DNA from: a virus
Lineage: Duplodnaviria > Caudoviricetes
IMG/VR virus record: IMGVR_UViG_3300037587_000500
Coordinates: 1 to 42,379 of that record
Length of the DNA stretch: 42,379 nt
Direction: 5' to 3' (one strand)
In this document: one piece after another, positions 5,716 through 42,015 of the stretch
How positions within the stretch are numbered: position 1 is the first letter of the stretch
Layout of the letters: every line of letters starts with the position of its first letter
Translations under genes and position numbers: made by a program
The notes under the pieces: model-generated
The model's input: only the letters and a program-made list of their open reading frames with translations
The model's database searches: none
Told to the model about the DNA's origin: nothing

Positions 5716-7271
5716 CATCAATTCAGTCGGCTATGCAGGTCGATAATGAGTTCTATGAATCGGACCATATCGATCTGCGGCTGGCTGACGAGGTGTCGAA
5801 GTTCTATGCTGACCCGTTGGGTTTCGTCATGTGGGCCTTCGACTGGGGCCACGGTGAGCTGAAGGGTTTCGACGGTCCTGATCAATGGCAGCGCGATTCT
5901 CTCAACGACATCGGTGATGCAGTAAAGGAACGCAAATTCAACGGCGTTGACCCAGTCGACCCGATTCAGGTAGCCGTAGCGTCAGGTCACGGGGTTGGCA
6001 AAAGCGCAAAGTCTGCTTGGCTGGCGCTATGGATCATGAGCACCAGGCCACACAGTAAAGGCGTGGTGACCGCCAACACCGGTGAGCAGCTCAAGACCAA
6101 GACGATGTCGGAGATGGCGAAGTGGCGCAGCCGCTGCATCACCGGTCATTGGTTCGAAATGAATGCGATGTCGATGGTGCACAAGGCTTACCCTGACACA
6201 TGGCGCGTCGATGCTCAGACATCACGTGAAGAGAACAGTGAGGCGTTCGCAGGTCTGCACGCTGCTGACTCAACACCCTGGTATCTGTTCGACGAAGCGT
6301 CTGCCATTCCTGAGAAGATCTGGGAAGTGGCGAAGGGCGGGTTGACTGACGGTGAACCGATGCACTTCTGCTTCGGCAACCCGACCAGGAACAACGGCAG
6401 CTTCAAAGAATGCTTCGGTCGACAGTCGCACCGCTGGATCACGCGCCGGGTCGACAGCCGAACAGCGAAGATGACCAACAAGCGGTTGATCAAAACTTGG
6501 GTCGATGACTTCGGTGAAGACAGTGACTTCGTCAGAGTGCGCGTGCGCGGTATGTTCCCGAAAGGTGGCGACATGCAGTACATGCCGAGTGACGTGGTAT
6601 TCGATGCACAGAAGCGCGGCCCGGGGCAGTACCTGGGTGATGATCCACTGATCTGCGGTATCGACCTTGCCCGGGGCGGCGACGACAACTGCATGATTCA
6701 GTTCCGCCGCGGCAAGGATGCCAAGAGTGAGAAGGTCTACCGGATACCGGGTGAGAAGTCCCGCGACAGCATGAAGGTCGTGTCGCTGATCGTCACAATA
6801 CTTGATCGGCACAAGCCTGACGTCAGCTTCCTTGATGTCGGCAGCATGGGTGGGCCGATCGGTGACCGGCTGCGGCAGCTGGGTTATCACTGCATCGACG
6901 TCGGTTTCGGTCACAAAGCTGAAGATGAGCGACTCTATGGCAACAAGACCGCCGAGATGGGTGGCCGATGTCGTGAGTGGCTGCTGGCCGGCGGCGCGAT
7001 AGTGGACAATCCTCAGCTTGAGACTGAGTTGACATCACGTGACTTCAGCCACAACGACAAAGATCAGCTGGTACTTGAGCGGAAGAAGGACGTGAAGAAG
7101 CGGTTGGGGGTGTCACCCGACTGGGCTGATGCGTTGTTCCTGACGTTCGCTCATGCGGTACCAAAGCGCGAAGTGCCTCGGGGTCAACTGGATGCGGCCA
7201 TTGGTGCCCGGCAGCAGAACAGCGGTGACTATGACCCGCTGAAGGCGCTTGATTCACATGAGTACGATTGA
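5712..7271 (+). CDS. terL: Terminase large subunit
   Basis: Walker A SGHGVGKS, Walker B YLFDEA, FGNP motif, nuclease motifs GIDLARGGDD and SPDWADA. Confidence 0.95.
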   Translation: MTSIQSAMQVDNEFYESDHIDLRLADEVSKFYADPLGFVMWAFDWGHGELKGFDGPDQWQRDSLNDIGDAVKERKFNGVDPVDPIQVAVASGHGVGKSAKSAWLALWIMSTRPHSKGVVTANTGEQLKTKTMSEMAKWRSRCITGHWFEMNAMSMVHKAYPDTWRVDAQTSREENSEAFAGLHAADSTPWYLFDEASAIPEKIWEVAKGGLTDGEPMHFCFGNPTRNNGSFKECFGRQSHRWITRRVDSRTAKMTNKRLIKTWVDDFGEDSDFVRVRVRGMFPKGGDMQYMPSDVVFDAQKRGPGQYLGDDPLICGIDLARGGDDNCMIQFRRGKDAKSEKVYRIPGEKSRDSMKVVSLIVTILDRHKPDVSFLDVGSMGGPIGDRLRQLGYHCIDVGFGHKAEDERLYGNKTAEMGGRCREWLLAGGAIVDNPQLETELTSRDFSHNDKDQLVLERKKDVKKRLGVSPDWADALFLTFAHAVPKREVPRGQLDAAIGARQQNSGDYDPLKALDSHEYD

Positions 7272-10546: not shown

Positions 10547-12892
10547 ATGAGCGTGCGTAACGCCATGTTGAACTTCATGATGCTGAGTAATGGGTTGGCG
10601 AAACTCATTGTGTCGTTTCTGACCGGTGCAGGAGGGTTCACTTTCACCCGGTCAGGTACTCAAGACTTCACCGATTTCGAGGATGAGACTAAGACTGTCC
10701 CTCAAGACCAGTCGGCGCATGTCGGGGCGCGGATGGTTGAGAATCTTACCCCTAGCGATCTATCTGCATGGGGAGACTCTATCTCTGGTGGGGCGGTAAT
10801 TACAGACAATGGTGATGGCACAAAGACTATAAACTCTCCTGCTGGGGGTCGTGCTTTTTCATTCTTTACGACAGGCTCCTTAGGGATCGGTGATTATAGG
10901 ATTACATTGTCTGTCTCGGATGTAGAACTTGTTACCGACTTGAACTTTTTTGGTCTCGGTAGCGGGACAGGCACAGCCTCGTTCCAAGCTGTGAAATTAC
11001 TGGATGATTCAGATAAAAGGTTATCTGCGACTATTACCGTGACTGTTGCAGGGACGATCCAACTCAGGATGGGTAACGGTACAAGCAATAATGCTGAGGG
11101 GGTGGTGAAAATGGCTCAGCCTGTCTTTGAGGAAGTCACCGGACAGTTCAACCAGAACCCTAGTGAATTCGTCGAGGCGGTCAAGTTTTCTAGCTTGGAA
11201 AACGGAAACTCAGTGGATAGTAATGGCGTAGTCACTGCTGCTGCTGGTATTGTAATCCCTCAGTCCGATGAATTTTCTCGCCATGAGGATAACTTTCTTG
11301 GCGATAGCAAATGGTCGGAGTTTACCGCCCCTACTGAAACGGGTGCCACGTTCACAATATCAGCCGATGATAGGACCGCAACGGTAACCAATCCCGGCGG
11401 TGGCCGTGCGTTTGTTGGTAAAACCTTCAGTTTTGTGTCAGGTAGAACATACTGCCTGTCATCCAGGGCAACCCAGCTTAGCGGTGGGATAGGTATCAAG
11501 AAAAACATGTCTGCCCTAGTTACAGCCCCGACTGGCGAGAAGGATCTAGATTTCCCCTCTAATGGTTTGTTGCAAGTTATCTTCACTGCTACAGTGACCG
11601 AGGACAAGTTAGTTAGATTCGGGATAGGCATTAACGCTGCCGAGGTTACTGCTGCTGTCTGGGAGATAGAAGCTCCGATACTTCGTGATGTTACAGGCTT
11701 GACTAATCAAAATGCTCCGTCCGATGTGGTTGATGGTTTACAGGCGTTTTTACTGACGAATGAAAACACGGTATCCGCTAATGTAGTTGCCGAGGTTGGT
11801 GCGCTAAGTGTTGGGCCTGTACGTGGATACGACTCGTTGGTTATTCATGGGGACTCGTTTACCAATGACTCATCTGAGCTTGGGAGCAATTTGCCAACTT
11901 TATCAGGGGTTGTATTTGAGACTAAAGGGGTGGCGGGAAATAAGTTAGGTCAGATAAGGGCAATCATGATTGCGGACCTACCCAGATCACCGATTAACGC
12001 GGTGCTAATAGAGGGTGGAATCAACGACATTATTGTAGCATCTGTGGACCCGACAGCCCAGATGATGATTGACCAGGCGGCAATGGTGGCCCATGCGGTG
12101 GGTAACGGCCTGCAGTATCAGGTCTACACTATAGGACCGTGGAAGGGGGCTACAGAAGCTACGTGGACAGCGGAGAGGCAGGGTTGGCAGGACACCTATA
12201 ACGCTTGGGTCATCTCTACCTACGATCCCCGGCGCGTAACGGACATGTTTACGATCCTTGAAGACCCTGGAACGCCGGATACATTGCTTGCAGCATTTGA
12301 CTCTGGTGACGGGTTGCACCCTAACGCTGCGGGTTTTGCGGCTGTTGATGCAGTGACGGATCCGCTTTTAACTCCTGAGTTTATGCAAGGCATCTTATTA
12401 GACACCAGCCCGACAGAGATGCGCCGGCCATGGCTCGTCCCTGTAAACGGCGTCAGCTTCCAGCTGAAAGCCACTATGAACTTCAACGGGTCGGACGCTA
12501 AGGGCGCGGACCACGCTTTGCTGTCGCTCGTGTTTGACGCAACGAACTATCTGGAGGTGGCAGTCGATGCGGTCAACGACCAGATCCATTTCAACCGATC
12601 GGTGGGCGGCGTAATCGGAACAGCATCGACAGCTGTGGCAGCGCTCAACTACGTGGTCGGCGATGAGTTAAACCTGCGCGGTGTGGCGGATAAAGACGGG
12701 CTGCGCTTCTGGGTTGACGCCGTCACTGCAGCCAGCACCACGACAGCCGCTAAAGCTGATTTCACATCACCACCGACAGAGATCCGAATAAACGAGAATG
12801 CAGCAGGGGTGACTGGGGTTTCAATTGCAGCAGCATCAAGCAGCACATGGAACTTTTCGCAGTCCGATGCATTCTTAGCGAGCCTGATGTAA
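10547..12892 (+). CDS. Head spike/fibre protein with tandem beta-sandwich repeats and SGNH/GDSL esterase
   Basis: FTFTRSG N-terminus; SGNH blocks HGDSF, GVAG, GGIND, DGLHPN; LamG-like C-terminus. Confidence 0.75.
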   Translation: MSVRNAMLNFMMLSNGLAKLIVSFLTGAGGFTFTRSGTQDFTDFEDETKTVPQDQSAHVGARMVENLTPSDLSAWGDSISGGAVITDNGDGTKTINSPAGGRAFSFFTTGSLGIGDYRITLSVSDVELVTDLNFFGLGSGTGTASFQAVKLLDDSDKRLSATITVTVAGTIQLRMGNGTSNNAEGVVKMAQPVFEEVTGQFNQNPSEFVEAVKFSSLENGNSVDSNGVVTAAAGIVIPQSDEFSRHEDNFLGDSKWSEFTAPTETGATFTISADDRTATVTNPGGGRAFVGKTFSFVSGRTYCLSSRATQLSGGIGIKKNMSALVTAPTGEKDLDFPSNGLLQVIFTATVTEDKLVRFGIGINAAEVTAAVWEIEAPILRDVTGLTNQNAPSDVVDGLQAFLLTNENTVSANVVAEVGALSVGPVRGYDSLVIHGDSFTNDSSELGSNLPTLSGVVFETKGVAGNKLGQIRAIMIADLPRSPINAVLIEGGINDIIVASVDPTAQMMIDQAAMVAHAVGNGLQYQVYTIGPWKGATEATWTAERQGWQDTYNAWVISTYDPRRVTDMFTILEDPGTPDTLLAAFDSGDGLHPNAAGFAAVDAVTDPLLTPEFMQGILLDTSPTEMRRPWLVPVNGVSFQLKATMNFNGSDAKGADHALLSLVFDATNYLEVAVDAVNDQIHFNRSVGGVIGTASTAVAALNYVVGDELNLRGVADKDGLRFWVDAVTAASTTTAAKADFTSPPTEIRINENAAGVTGVSIAAASSSTWNFSQSDAFLASLM

Positions 12893-34913: not shown

Positions 34914-36945
34914 GCAATGGTTTCACCAGCTTCTCAGCTTCCTTGATGTACCATTCGAAGTTCAGGTCACAGTAGTGACTCTGTTTATCGAGAACGTTCG
35001 CTGTGTGTTGATCCAAGTTGTTGCAGATCTGCACAGTCCAACCAGTGTTGATGCCCATCCGACGTTCCTCATACACTGACTTATTCTTGGTGTGCACTCG
35101 CTCATCCCACACACCCGGACCCACCTCAGCCATGACACCATCGAAGTGTGCGTCAGTCAGCTTGTTCGCACGCTTGAACTCACCCATCGGACCACCCGCA
35201 GGCATCACCTTCTCAAGCGGTCGACCCTCAGTGCTGATGTAATAGCGCACAATGTTGCTGACCTGCTCACCACCCCACTCGAGCATTGAGCTGCGGGGTA
35301 CCTTAGTGCGCAGAAAGAAGTCGAAGATGTCGTCATGACTGGTGATGAACTCGCGGATGTCTTCACCGCGCACCAGGGCGGCTTCAGCAGCCATTGCCAC
35401 CACGCGTGCTGACCAGTCTTTGTGATACGGCAGTTCACGGGTGCCGGGGTTCTCTTCGGCTGTCTCATAGGCATAGGCGCCGATGCGCTTCAGCTTGCCG
35501 CCCTGCTTCTCTGCCATGTAGCTGTTGACGTCCCTGATGAACATGCGGTCATACAACGCTTCCTCAAGCTCCAGGTTCGTGACCCCCTCCCACCAGGTAC
35601 AGACCGAACGGGTGTGCTCAACATACTCACGGGGGCACAGGTAAGTGATGCCGTCGGTGTTGGCTTGGATCATGCGCAACCCCGGCACCTTCAGCATCTG
35701 CTCAGCCAACATGCACAGCAGCAACTGACCATTGATGGTGATTGACATGGTGTATTGCAGGTCATAGAAGGGGCTGTATTCGTTACCGCTGCCACCGTAT
35801 GCACCGTTCAACGCTAGCTTAAATGCCTCGTTCTCAGGGGTGCCCTTGGGGTACGTCTTGCGGGTGTGGTAAACGCTCTGATACGCATCACAGAATGCTT
35901 GCCCCAAGTGAGCCGGGAACAGATGATTTTTGATGCCCAGGTTCGGATAGAAGCTGGCAACGTCAACATCAACGATCTGGTATCGGTCATCGCTGCAGAT
36001 GACCTGTGACTCAACCGATGCATGGATGCCGCCGGTGCCGAACTTATACGCCACACCGTCAACGTCAGCGATCAGACCTTTGAACACACCTTTGGTTTCA
36101 GTGATCACCTTCGACTGCAGGAACACCAGGATCTGCTGAAACTCGATCCGCTCGAATGACACATAGTCGAATATCACCTCAGCCAGATCGATGCGCTCAC
36201 GCTTGGTCTGACGCTTGACCTTCTTGTTACCCTCATACTCGAAGCAGGGGATGCCTGACTTCTCGATCTCAGTGACCAGGATCGTTTCACCGATCTTCAC
36301 GTCACTCATGTTCATCATGTTTTTGCCGAAGGTTTCACTGAGTCCTTCACGCATCCTGATCGCAGTCATCGTGCGGTCGCAGAACTTATCGGTGGCGTCG
36401 ATGTCGTGCCACATGTAGTCACCGAGTGCCTGGATCTGATCATCGGTGAGCACGGTGCCGACAGGAAACGGCAGATCTTCGATGTTGCTCATGCGCATGT
36501 TGAACTCGAGCACCTTCAGACCTGTCATCTTTGACGGGTTGTCGAAGTGGTGAATCTTGAACAGGTCGATCTGCGGCACCAGCCAATCGGATTCCCAAAC
36601 CATGTGCGAGAACCTTGCAGGACCGTGGGCGCCGATGATCGACATCGCCTTGTTGTAGATGTCGGTGTAGGTGATGCCGACGTGCTGATTCTTGTGGATG
36701 AAGTGAATCACCGGATAGTCGAACCCGAGGCTGTTGTATCCGACCATACGCACCTTGTGTTGACCCAGGATGTCGAGGAACAAGCAGAACATTCTGATGT
36801 CGTTGCGTCGGGTGCTGATCTCGAAGTACCACTTGCGCCGAGTCGTGCGATGCAGCAGCCCGATGGTGAATGCGTTTGGGAATGTCTCGATGTCATAATC
36901 GATATCGCCATCGGTGATGCCGAAGAGGAAGTCGGGGTTAGTCAT
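34906..36945 (-). CDS. Family-B-type DNA polymerase with 3'-5' exonuclease
   Basis: Exo motifs YDIET, GYNSLGFD, YMWHD; pol motifs DVASFYPN, KLALNGAYG, ANTDG. Confidence 0.92.
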   Translation of the reverse strand: MTNPDFLFGITDGDIDYDIETFPNAFTIGLLHRTTRRKWYFEISTRRNDIRMFCLFLDILGQHKVRMVGYNSLGFDYPVIHFIHKNQHVGITYTDIYNKAMSIIGAHGPARFSHMVWESDWLVPQIDLFKIHHFDNPSKMTGLKVLEFNMRMSNIEDLPFPVGTVLTDDQIQALGDYMWHDIDATDKFCDRTMTAIRMREGLSETFGKNMMNMSDVKIGETILVTEIEKSGIPCFEYEGNKKVKRQTKRERIDLAEVIFDYVSFERIEFQQILVFLQSKVITETKGVFKGLIADVDGVAYKFGTGGIHASVESQVICSDDRYQIVDVDVASFYPNLGIKNHLFPAHLGQAFCDAYQSVYHTRKTYPKGTPENEAFKLALNGAYGGSGNEYSPFYDLQYTMSITINGQLLLCMLAEQMLKVPGLRMIQANTDGITYLCPREYVEHTRSVCTWWEGVTNLELEEALYDRMFIRDVNSYMAEKQGGKLKRIGAYAYETAEENPGTRELPYHKDWSARVVAMAAEAALVRGEDIREFITSHDDIFDFFLRTKVPRSSMLEWGGEQVSNIVRYYISTEGRPLEKVMPAGGPMGEFKRANKLTDAHFDGVMAEVGPGVWDERVHTKNKSVYEERRMGINTGWTVQICNNLDQHTANVLDKQSHYCDLNFEWYIKEAEKLVKPLLD

Positions 36946-36959
36946 TGGTCGTCACCTCA

Positions 36960-37295
36960 TTATCTTTTTGGAGTGGTGCTGACTACGTCAAAAGACACTC
37001 GATGAATGCCTAGTCCACATCCAGGCGCACCCAGCACCACTTCAAAAAGACCCGACCGAAGCCGGGCTGGGTTGTTACTGCACTCGAACGAACGGGATGC
37101 CTCGTTGAGTTTTAGCATACTGCAGGGGCAAGTGAGGCATCCGGCGTAACTCACACCGCCGACATCCATGCGCTGACTGCGCTCATCTTCCAGGGATCGA
37201 CACACCATCGCATTCGGTGCGCGGACTGCCTGTCGCTGGCGTTTGGTGCGATGTCGACCGTTACCGGTCAGCTTGTTAGCAGGGTTGCGATTCAT
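36960..37295 (-). CDS. Hypothetical Cys-containing basic protein
   Basis: ORF track; AGGTGA RBS before ATG 37295; CLTCPC..C..C. Confidence 0.55.
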   Translation of the reverse strand: MNRNPANKLTGNGRHRTKRQRQAVRAPNAMVCRSLEDERSQRMDVGGVSYAGCLTCPCSMLKLNEASRSFECSNNPARLRSGLFEVVLGAPGCGLGIHRVSFDVVSTTPKR

Positions 37296-37339
37296 AATTA
37301 TCACCTAAGATAAAGCCCGGTGTGACCCAGGCACATTGA

Positions 37340-37694
<355 letters not shown>

Positions 37695-37711
<17 letters not shown>

Positions 37712-37913
37712 ATAATTCTCCAAGTTCTTCAGGTGCGATGATTCGCAGGTTGCCGCTGTTGAATGCAGTGATCATCTCACGCACTAACAGCTGGTAAGGT
37801 TTGCCGGCCACGCGGATCGACTTCTGTTTGAAAATCTCCAACTCTCTCGAATCAACCCGACAACGCAGATTGTCATCAAGATTGCTGGACTGTTCTACGG
37901 CATCGGTTGCCAT
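37695..37913 (-). CDS. Ribbon-helix-helix-like regulator
   Basis: NLRCRVD strand followed by two helices; 72 aa; first gene of the leftward operon. Confidence 0.6.
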
Positions 37914-38055
37914 GTTTCACCCTCTTCATTCGGTTAGCTTCTACTGACAAACCCGCAGTCAAGCGGGTTTGATGATTAGCTTATGAATTGGATTATTAAC
38001 TGTGCATGATCATACCCTCAGTTGGTTGCTTGCGTTTCTGCCTGTTTGGGATTTC

Positions 38056-41130: not shown

Positions 41131-41160
41131 TTGACATGTGGAACATTGTGGTACTACACT
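41131..41160 (+). promoter_or_regulatory. sigma70 promoter for the early small-gene cluster, with TGTGGAACA box
   Basis: TTGACA-18-TACACT; spacer tgtggaacattgtggtac. Confidence 0.7.
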
Positions 41161-41191: not shown

Positions 41192-41548
41192 GTGAAAACT
41201 CAACCTGGGTACTTCTCTGATCTCAACGAAGAGATCGAAATCAACGTGCAGCACATGGCGCCAGTGACTCTGACACTGGGTCAGATCCTTGAACAGCAAG
41301 CCATGCTCACCGCCTTCCGGCACGCCAGCAACAGCATCGGCATAGCAACCGGTACCATCATCAGCCATGTCGCTCACGATGAAGCTGCGAAGTCGGTCAC
41401 CGGAGATCACTACTTCCTTGAGCTGATCGCTGAGTCTGAGCTGCGGTACAAGCGGTTGAAGGCTGCTGCTGAGGATGTGGTCGAGTCTCGTAACAGTGTG
41501 ATCCGGTCGGTTGAATCAATCGCTAAATTGTGGGAGCTACTGAAATGA
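41192..41548 (+). CDS. Hypothetical protein
   Basis: GTG after GAGGTG RBS, downstream of the promoter. Confidence 0.65.
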   Translation: MKTQPGYFSDLNEEIEINVQHMAPVTLTLGQILEQQAMLTAFRHASNSIGIATGTIISHVAHDEAAKSVTGDHYFLELIAESELRYKRLKAAAEDVVESRNSVIRSVESIAKLWELLK

Positions 41549-42015
41549 TCTGCCCGAAGTGCGACACCGGTGGTGGTCCCTGTTACTGCCAGCCGCCGAA
41601 GCTCAAGGTCACGTTCAACATGAAGGGTGGTGGTCGCATTACCACAACCGGGTTCAGTGACGCTGACTCAGCGATCGTTGGGCTGAACATATCACGTGAC
41701 ATGATCCGAACGACCAACACTGTCAGGCTACCATTGAAAATTCAACTGTCGTCTGCGTATGGTCATTTCGGTGTCGATCTGGCTGAGGGACCAGACACCA
41801 GCGCGACGATGACTATCAATCGATCCGGTCTGCCTGCTGAAGCGCTGGACATGTCAGGTATCAAGGCTGGTCAGCGCACATGGTCGATCAAGGCTCAGAC
41901 CATCTACACCTTGATCGAAGAGGTCATCAACGCCTACGACAACACTGTCAGCAAAGATCAGTTGATTGATGACCTGAACCAATACGCTGCGCAGCTGGCA
42001 AGAGGTGAGTTATGA
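41545..42015 (+). CDS. Mosaic hypothetical protein (Cys knuckle, PolB-motif-B-like and TerL-nuclease-like peptides)
   Basis: MICPKCDTGGGPCYC; LKIQLSSAYGHFGVDLAEGPD; ATGA overlaps at both ends. Confidence 0.7.
   Translation: MICPKCDTGGGPCYCQPPKLKVTFNMKGGGRITTTGFSDADSAIVGLNISRDMIRTTNTVRLPLKIQLSSAYGHFGVDLAEGPDTSATMTINRSGLPAEALDMSGIKAGQRTWSIKAQTIYTLIEEVINAYDNTVSKDQLIDDLNQYAAQLARGEL

Follow-up and report, generated by a model that had tools for sequence, protein, structure and literature searches.

Terminase-like and polymerase-like peptides in the variable linker of a small phage protein, and their possible reading as decoys of host sensors

Introduction

Why would a small accessory protein of a phage carry, back to back, one peptide resembling motif B of family-B DNA polymerases and another resembling the first nuclease strand of the large terminase subunit (TerL), the strand that carries the first catalytic Asp? 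The question is raised by P0001, a protein encoded in the window, the whole stretch of 42,379 nucleotides analysed here, which is a complete phage record of 42 kb bearing direct terminal repeats (end repeat of 127 bases) and encodes a family-B polymerase, a primase, a helicase, TerL and a portal. The nearest cultured relatives are the Vibrio phages PS25B.1, MZH0603, 1.185.O and 1.021, whose primases are 57-66% identical to that of the window. The sole sequencing run containing the window sequence comes from marine sediment, and no RNA dataset is listed for it. A sequence-only reading had taken the two peptides for mimics of the phage's own polymerase and terminase, displayed by an early protein as a possible decoy for host defence.

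Results

The ORF at 41545-42015 looks like a real gene (Table 1). It lies in a mosaic run of small genes, and P0001 is a credible gene because the ORF overlaps its neighbours by ATGA at both ends and has GGGAG upstream; syntenic homologues exist. A 900-base contig over 41442-42341 from the probable source run spans P0001 with zero differences to the window and, as it probably derives from the source sample, is not independent of it. P0001 may be expressed early, judging by its position and by a weak sigma-70-like site matching at 10/12 (2 found against 1.0 expected), the two features that bear on timing.

Table 1. Positions of P0001, its segments and the sequences compared with it
Feature	Position	Strand	Remark
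Sigma-70-like promoter site, tentative	41131..41160	+	upstream of the gene run
P0001, 156-aa accessory protein	41545..42015	+	third gene after primase; 4 known full family members
Cys-rich tip CPKxxxGGGPCYC	41548..41598	+	12-13/17 identical in homologues; putative metal binding
Scaffold, small beta-beta-alpha-beta core domain, residues 19-62	41599..41730	+	conserved
Family-B polymerase motif-B look-alike KIQLSSAYGHFG	41737..41772	+	nearest T4-like cyanophage KIQLNSAYG; S for N
Mobile terminase-nuclease-strand look-alike FGVDLAEGPDTSA	41767..41805	+	D-x5-D-x-[ST]-[AV] spacing
RxGLPAEALD segment, common to P0002, and C-terminal helical hairpin ending RGE[LS]	41821..42012	+	
Own polymerase motif B KLALNGAYGGSG	35785..35820	-	comparison only; lineage consensus KLALNGAYGGS
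Own TerL first nuclease strand GIDLARGGDD	6657..6686	+	comparison only; GIDLARGGD at 6657-6683
G040 frame with terminase-strand look-alike FIAVDSASEPDSSV	37093-37515		
G040 paralogue ending in motif-B look-alike IKMTLNSKYGVFGG	37696-37917		

Homologues of P0001 are few. A full-library search returned P0002 and P0003, and a synteny and profile search led to a protein of L010; the family profile matched 4/50 records, two of them by the N-tip only, with the L010 protein as the sole addition, and found no members in metagenome or genome contigs. The single-sequence search returned P0001 itself only, with noise in cultured phages, nothing in viral contigs and nothing usable in the Atlas. P0004 was dropped as a homologue, being a repeat-protein artefact. 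The core retains 27, 32 and 15 of 44 identical residues in the three homologues. In the AlphaFold2 model, built from a 4-row alignment with a mean pLDDT of 56, core residues 21-60 reach a pLDDT of about 80, a C-terminal helical pair is predicted and residues 64-111 fall below 50; because a shallow alignment stands behind these low values, disorder of residues 64-111 is only weakly evidenced. Foldseek with this low-confidence model gave 0 matches at E <= 0.001, and the motif segment matched nothing in Pfam, PHROG or PDB. The 20-residue motif segment has 2, 1 and 1 identities with the three homologues, over 8-16 gaps, and is replaced or missing in all three, so that the tags are present in one of four family members. 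As this segment is unconserved while the Cys tip and core are conserved, the motifs occupy a variable slot, and the tagged linker is swapped between homologues on a scaffold whose core is conserved. The expectation that the two peptides would be the most conserved islands of the protein is not borne out (1-2/20 residues identical in 3/3 homologues), and non-conservation in homologues, which the earlier note itself had named as refuting its proposal, is the case in this family. The variable slot of P0003 (residues about 102-122, VIDAIRY...IYVDP) was set aside as a carrier of later terminase nuclease motifs, the likeness being by eye only; this slot has no terminase match by tblastn and no profile support. 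The CPKxxxGGGPCYC micro-module of the N-tip also starts unrelated genes (L006, L008, L018-L020), including in Mu-like phages.

The two peptides are real and were misattributed as to origin. Positions 41737-41796 encode KIQLSSAYGHFGVDLAEGPD, and the polymerase and TerL peptides with which it had been aligned also stand where they were reported, at 35785-35820 on the minus strand and at 6657-6683; the terminase-like tag extends beyond the first-noted 9 residues. Polymerases of the lineage mostly read KLALNGAYGGS (motif found in 117/120 proteins) and its terminases G[IV]D[MLIV]ARGGDD. DNA identity of the tags to the phage's own genes is 17/36 bases for the polymerase and 17/27 for TerL, which rules out a recent DNA copy from either gene. 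With profiles of 20 lineage core proteins, the adjacent-hit pair of P0001 ranks 121 among 529 accessory ORFs and is equalled by 42/150 shuffles, in a comparison that gives catalytic columns no extra weight. An own-lineage-only polymerase profile scores the P0001 peptide below 6 bits, a value reached by 54 null hits, and shuffle p values of 0.0015 and 0.005 with own-lineage profiles were discarded, as they are lost in an unbiased test or when one distant polymerase is removed. A match to the own lineage better than chance and better than to foreign enzymes was thus not found, and mimicry of the phage's own enzymes is not supported by the base identities, the rank and the low polymerase score. 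The claim that the pair exceeds chance divides accordingly, since it stands with general polymerase and Dam-tail profiles and falls with lineage core proteins. The motifs appear non-random and lie in a linker predicted to be disordered.

The terminase-like peptide, GVDLAEGPDTSA, is a member of a mobile motif, [IV]G[VI]DLAxGPDx[TS][VA]. The pattern G[VI]DLAxGPD occurs in viral_contigs at no fewer than 119 loci (about 290 estimated); a pattern of comparable information gave 4. Among the matches listed, 108/119 loci were parsed and fall into 40 groups that have no blastp link after motif masking; about seven resemble, by eye, chance frames or ordinary methyltransferase strands. Flanks outside the search pattern are biased in the 40 groups listed, with I/V at -1 in 25/40, T/S at +10 in 24/40 and V/A at +11 in 22/40. 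TerL is absent from the carrier groups among the matches listed (0/40), and of the 16/40 such groups with a PHROG match, the best-matched stretch excludes the motif in 11. Carriers include Dam, other methyltransferases, an HNH protein, P2-type small terminase, dNMP kinase, a portal-like protein, a RecBCD-inhibitor-like protein and tiny ORFs, and the tag is often a tail or an insertion. In gp21 of Salmonella phage g341c (L435:502-1257), the GNSP...VMVPK context occurs twice, with and without an inserted tag. In 201 genomes of one bacterial order the tag gave 4 matches (the seed genome and three prophage small-terminase genes) against 0 for a rearranged control, too few to carry weight. P0001 itself has F at -1 and S and A at +10 and +11, in a region predicted to be disordered and outside any terminase. 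As side observations, P2-type small terminase subunits (L179, L216, L442-L444) bear the large-terminase-like tag on an extension of the N-terminus, and phrog_13978 (50 positions, function unknown) matches the tag region of L231 at E 0.0008, so that a family of mini-proteins centred on the tag may have been clustered already.

The same element is recognisable in Dam methylases. P2-like prophage Dam proteins (L413-L434) end in the tail W-x-G-x-D-x-[AS]-x3-D-x-S, and 22 such tails, from proteins found with a Dam query and with one of six seed peptides abutting the tail, keep W in 22, G in 20, the first Asp in 22, the second Asp in 21 and S in 18 while intervening positions vary. Variants such as WVGFDPSRGVDSS approach the P2 terminase gpP sequence WIGYDPSHRGDS. 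The best site of the Dam-tail profile is the first nuclease strand in 4/4 terminases, with p of 0.002 for P2, 0.007 for HK97, 0.018 for Mu and 0.074 for the window's own TerL. A profile of 15 non-pattern Dam tails gives the P0001 tag 24.0 bits, the top hit of 2.29 million six-frame positions. The tag shares the spacing G-x-D-x-[AS]-x3-D-x-[TS]-[AVG], and with it the D-x5-D distance, with the TerL strand of HK97 gp2, Mu gp28 and P2 gpP; it differs from a TerL nuclease in its 12-13 residues without a fold, in lacking the later catalytic acids, in its G-P loop dialect and in its non-terminase carriers. P0001 accordingly has the first-strand Asp and the loop Asp with x-[ST]-[AV] of a large terminase nuclease, and not its RNase H fold, further catalytic acids and joined ATPase. 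As an add-on, the terminase-like tag recurs in phage proteins unrelated to one another, and it keeps both aspartates.

The polymerase-like peptide KIQLSSAYG is identical at 8/9 residues to KIQLNSAYG of the polymerase of S-CAM3, a T4-like cyanophage, and among 8 tblastn matches of a 36-residue P0001 segment to 50,697 phage records (E 4-10), four are the annotated S-CAM3 DNA polymerase and one is a further tag carrier. A polymerase profile chosen beforehand (T4, phi29, PRD1 and the window's own) scores P0001 at 18.2 bits, which 11/200,000 shuffles reach and which compares with a reversed-null maximum of 17.3; with the same profile P0001 ranks 2 of 1,198 called non-polymerase genes. The motif-B score, taken alone, is modest. 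P0001 shares K-x3-[NS]-S-x-Y-G-x2-G with motif B of T4 gp43, S-CAM3, phi29 and PRD1, and its match to motif B (KxxxNSxYG) is significant by profile with S at the conserved N. Unlike a family-B polymerase it lacks motifs A and C and the fingers and palm fold, and it is far from the several hundred residues of such an enzyme; its 156 aa have no Pfam or PHROG polymerase match, and its model is unrelated to polymerase. A strict motif-B pattern returned true polymerases in all 119 parsed of 120 matches listed, because phi29-like enzymes swamp these matches. A third polymerase-motif carrier is a 246-aa non-polymerase ORF of jumbo phage KpGz_1 (L409:1072-1812) with SLQLNSQYGAYG, a score that 3/200,000 shuffles reach. 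In G007, a motif-B match falls on the strand opposite a real gene and was put down to chance. The polymerase-like tag thus recurs outside polymerases, and with it the suggestion that the peptides are mobile mini-modules is borne out, by the 40 groups among the matches listed for the terminase-like tag and by G040 and KpGz_1 for the motif-B type.

Both tag types occur together on another scaffold, in the same region, in the related phage G040. A scan covering 2.29 million positions of 28 related genomes or large fragments, with one profile set seeded from P0001, gave the window and G040 as the top two non-enzyme hits with both motifs. G040 encodes, at 37093-37917 (L126:17093-17917), two nearby paralogues built on an unrelated scaffold; a single gene separates them, each has one tag, and the tags are about 500 nt apart. 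Like those of the window, they lie between primase and TerS, a co-location with a chance of about 0.001 by rough estimate. The G040 motif-B peptide is equalled by 1/200,000 shuffles, and its terminase-like tag stands only 0.8 bit above the background when scored with the Dam-tail profile; the scaffold occurs in 1/50 records. The fused two-motif form was sought elsewhere, and none of the 4 viral hits read or of the 12/23 metagenome hits parsed was relevant. By eye, the IFASGAVGCFK preceding the terminase-strand look-alike of G040 resembles a broken Walker A.

Discussion

The reading that explains the sequences best, though it is somewhat less likely than not, is that P0001 is a small scaffold whose variable linker carries probably acquired enzyme tags that would bind host sensors without activating them. 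Both tags were likely gained horizontally from other phages, and selection could come from a partner that reads terminase and polymerase signatures, possibly a host sensor directed at the terminase nuclease or at family-B polymerase. Host sensors are the partners known to read invariant features of terminase. Each tag would fold upon binding, the terminase strand into a beta-hairpin and motif B into a helix, and partial occupancy of the sensor would block the oligomerisation that the full enzyme would trigger. In the available text of PMC13601566, SeAvs3 reads residues of the active site and takes the nuclease natively folded, nuclease domains can elicit a response from KpAvs2, EcAvs2 holds an 11-residue helix from an unfolded nuclease and Upx is modelled on unfolded terminase strands; the latter two indicate that sensors are able to bind unfolded terminase pieces. 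SeAvs3 activation requires both terminase domains, as stated in the accessible part of Bioarxiv 10.64898/2026.08.25.746987, and therefore filling one cavity could block without triggering. Several descriptions count against the decoy reading. SeAvs3 takes the native nuclease, Avs2 and Upx depend mainly on the terminase ATPase, and the terminase look-alikes vs.8 and Ksap1/2 activate sensors rather than block them (PMC13601566, available text). Recognition by Avs proteins concerns core folds, and the polymerases sensed by Avs19 are of family A (PMC13581612, available text), the main text of which does not contain the term 'family B'. Folded domains, above all the terminase ATPase, are what the sensors described in the accessible parts of both sources mostly read. 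The sequences also count against the decoy in that one of four family members has the tags, the fused form had no relevant counterpart among the hits parsed elsewhere, the match to the phage's own core proteins is no better than chance, all 119 parsed strict motif-B matches are true polymerases and the terminase-like tag of G040 leads the background by under one bit. A wider version, in which phages would trade 12-15-residue terminase and polymerase epitope tags grafted onto small proteins as competitive inhibitors of pattern-recognition immunity, with GVDLAxGPD as the most widespread tag and the motif-B tag directed at an undiscovered family-B polymerase sensor, is doubtful.

The tags could instead be docking elements that address their carriers to a phage or host partner such as a chaperone, a protease or the machinery of packaging or replication, comparable to clamp-binding or SSB-tail motifs, with the enzyme likeness marking origin and not immune mimicry. 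The presence of the terminase-like tag on termini or linkers of working enzymes (Dam, methyltransferases, HNH, dNMP kinase, small terminase and a portal-like protein) and its own dialect, with G-P in the loop and scores above those of real terminases, fit this. On the other side, the carriers have no evident pathway in common, usually one carrier is seen per genome, tiny ORFs contain little beyond the tag, and two different enzyme signatures stand together twice, in the window and in G040; docking is considered unlikely. Interference between phages, with dominant-negative tags jamming the terminase or polymerase assemblies of competitors, would explain why the tags fit outsiders (HK97/Mu/P2 spacing and a T4-like polymerase) better than the phage's own enzymes and why many carriers are prophage genes. 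Both motifs, however, are buried active-site elements that are not known to be subunit interfaces, and in P2-like prophages the Dam tails look like the terminase of P2 itself; interference is considered very unlikely.

Illegitimate recombination may have moved short pieces of conserved enzyme genes into linkers that tolerate them, where they are noticed only because the motifs are famous; the highly mosaic region with its shuffled micro-modules and the loss or replacement of the segment in 3/3 homologues fit such neutral scraps. The aspartates retained amid varying neighbours in 22 Dam tails, together with 40 independent groups among the matches listed that share one short consensus while lacking flanking terminase sequence, speak against them, and this account is considered quite improbable. 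Alternatively, the terminase-like tag alone may be real, with the polymerase peptide a neighbour by chance, or it may be an acidic beta-hairpin of a generic kind (metal or RNase-H/SUKH-like) that has no relation to terminase. For the polymerase peptide a Bonferroni correction over 1,198 genes gives about 0.07, the reversed null comes close to the observed score (17.3 vs 18.2 bits), the segment is without a Pfam, PHROG or PDB match, the tag profile has Knr4/Smi1 among its best hits in PDB (E 1.6-1.9) with no terminase listed, and 2/40 groups among the matches listed look like ordinary SAM-methyltransferase strands. Against these stand the out-of-sample replicate in G040 (1/200,000 shuffles, with a terminase-like tag about 500 nt away), the KpGz_1 carrier (3/200,000 shuffles) and the 8/9 identity to the S-CAM3 motif B, and chance or a generic hairpin is judged decidedly improbable.

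The decoy reading has partial precedents. T4 vs.8 and Ksap1/Ksap2 are likewise phage proteins other than terminase that engage Avs2 and look like part of terminase; unlike the short linear nuclease-strand and polymerase peptides seen here, they are folded, ATPase-like and activating (PMC13601566, available text), and P0001 has no match to such a fold or family. The nearest printed idea, in the accessible text of PMC5871332, is the proposal, put forward there as a hypothesis only, that the ankyrin fusions of Bodo saltans virus are decoys. Its ankyrin ORFs carry fragments of essential enzymes, including DNA polymerase, on unrelated scaffolds, and differ from the case described here in belonging to a eukaryotic giant virus, in the ankyrin scaffold and in using fragments of the virus's own genes. 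EVADES (10.1101/2025.06.06.658234), in the part available, discusses DNA mimics and enzymatic anti-Avs proteins, and neither a decoy nor a mimic term occurs in the accessible text of PMC12236752. No description of the tag was found by motif or by decoy and mimic terms in the full-text literature, a collection with few subscription papers and with supplements excluded. By analogy, the tag would extend viral pseudo-ligand mimicry.

Receptors that sense terminase are considered difficult to evade, since the active-site features they read are immutable, and a portable short decoy of such a feature would, if the decoy reading is true, be a general counter-measure. The tag sequence could serve as a hook for fishing unknown sensors, and since it occurs in tractable enterobacterial carriers (P2-like Dam tails and Salmonella phage g341c), the idea is directly testable. 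Even as a docking tag, it would be a motif common to dozens of unrelated phage proteins and absent from the literature searched.

Other features of the window were noted in passing. A 99-aa stand-alone ORF at 1532-1831 matches the N-terminal piece of NAD-dependent DNA ligase (phrog_6466, phrog_3869) and is kept in L005, L008 and L010; it is another enzyme fragment in the same region. A 781-aa ORF at 10547-12892, outside the core profiles, has the portal region on one side and scaffold and capsid genes on the other, and a long Ala-Pro repeat protein encoded at 37340-37723 on the minus strand is common to the lineage.
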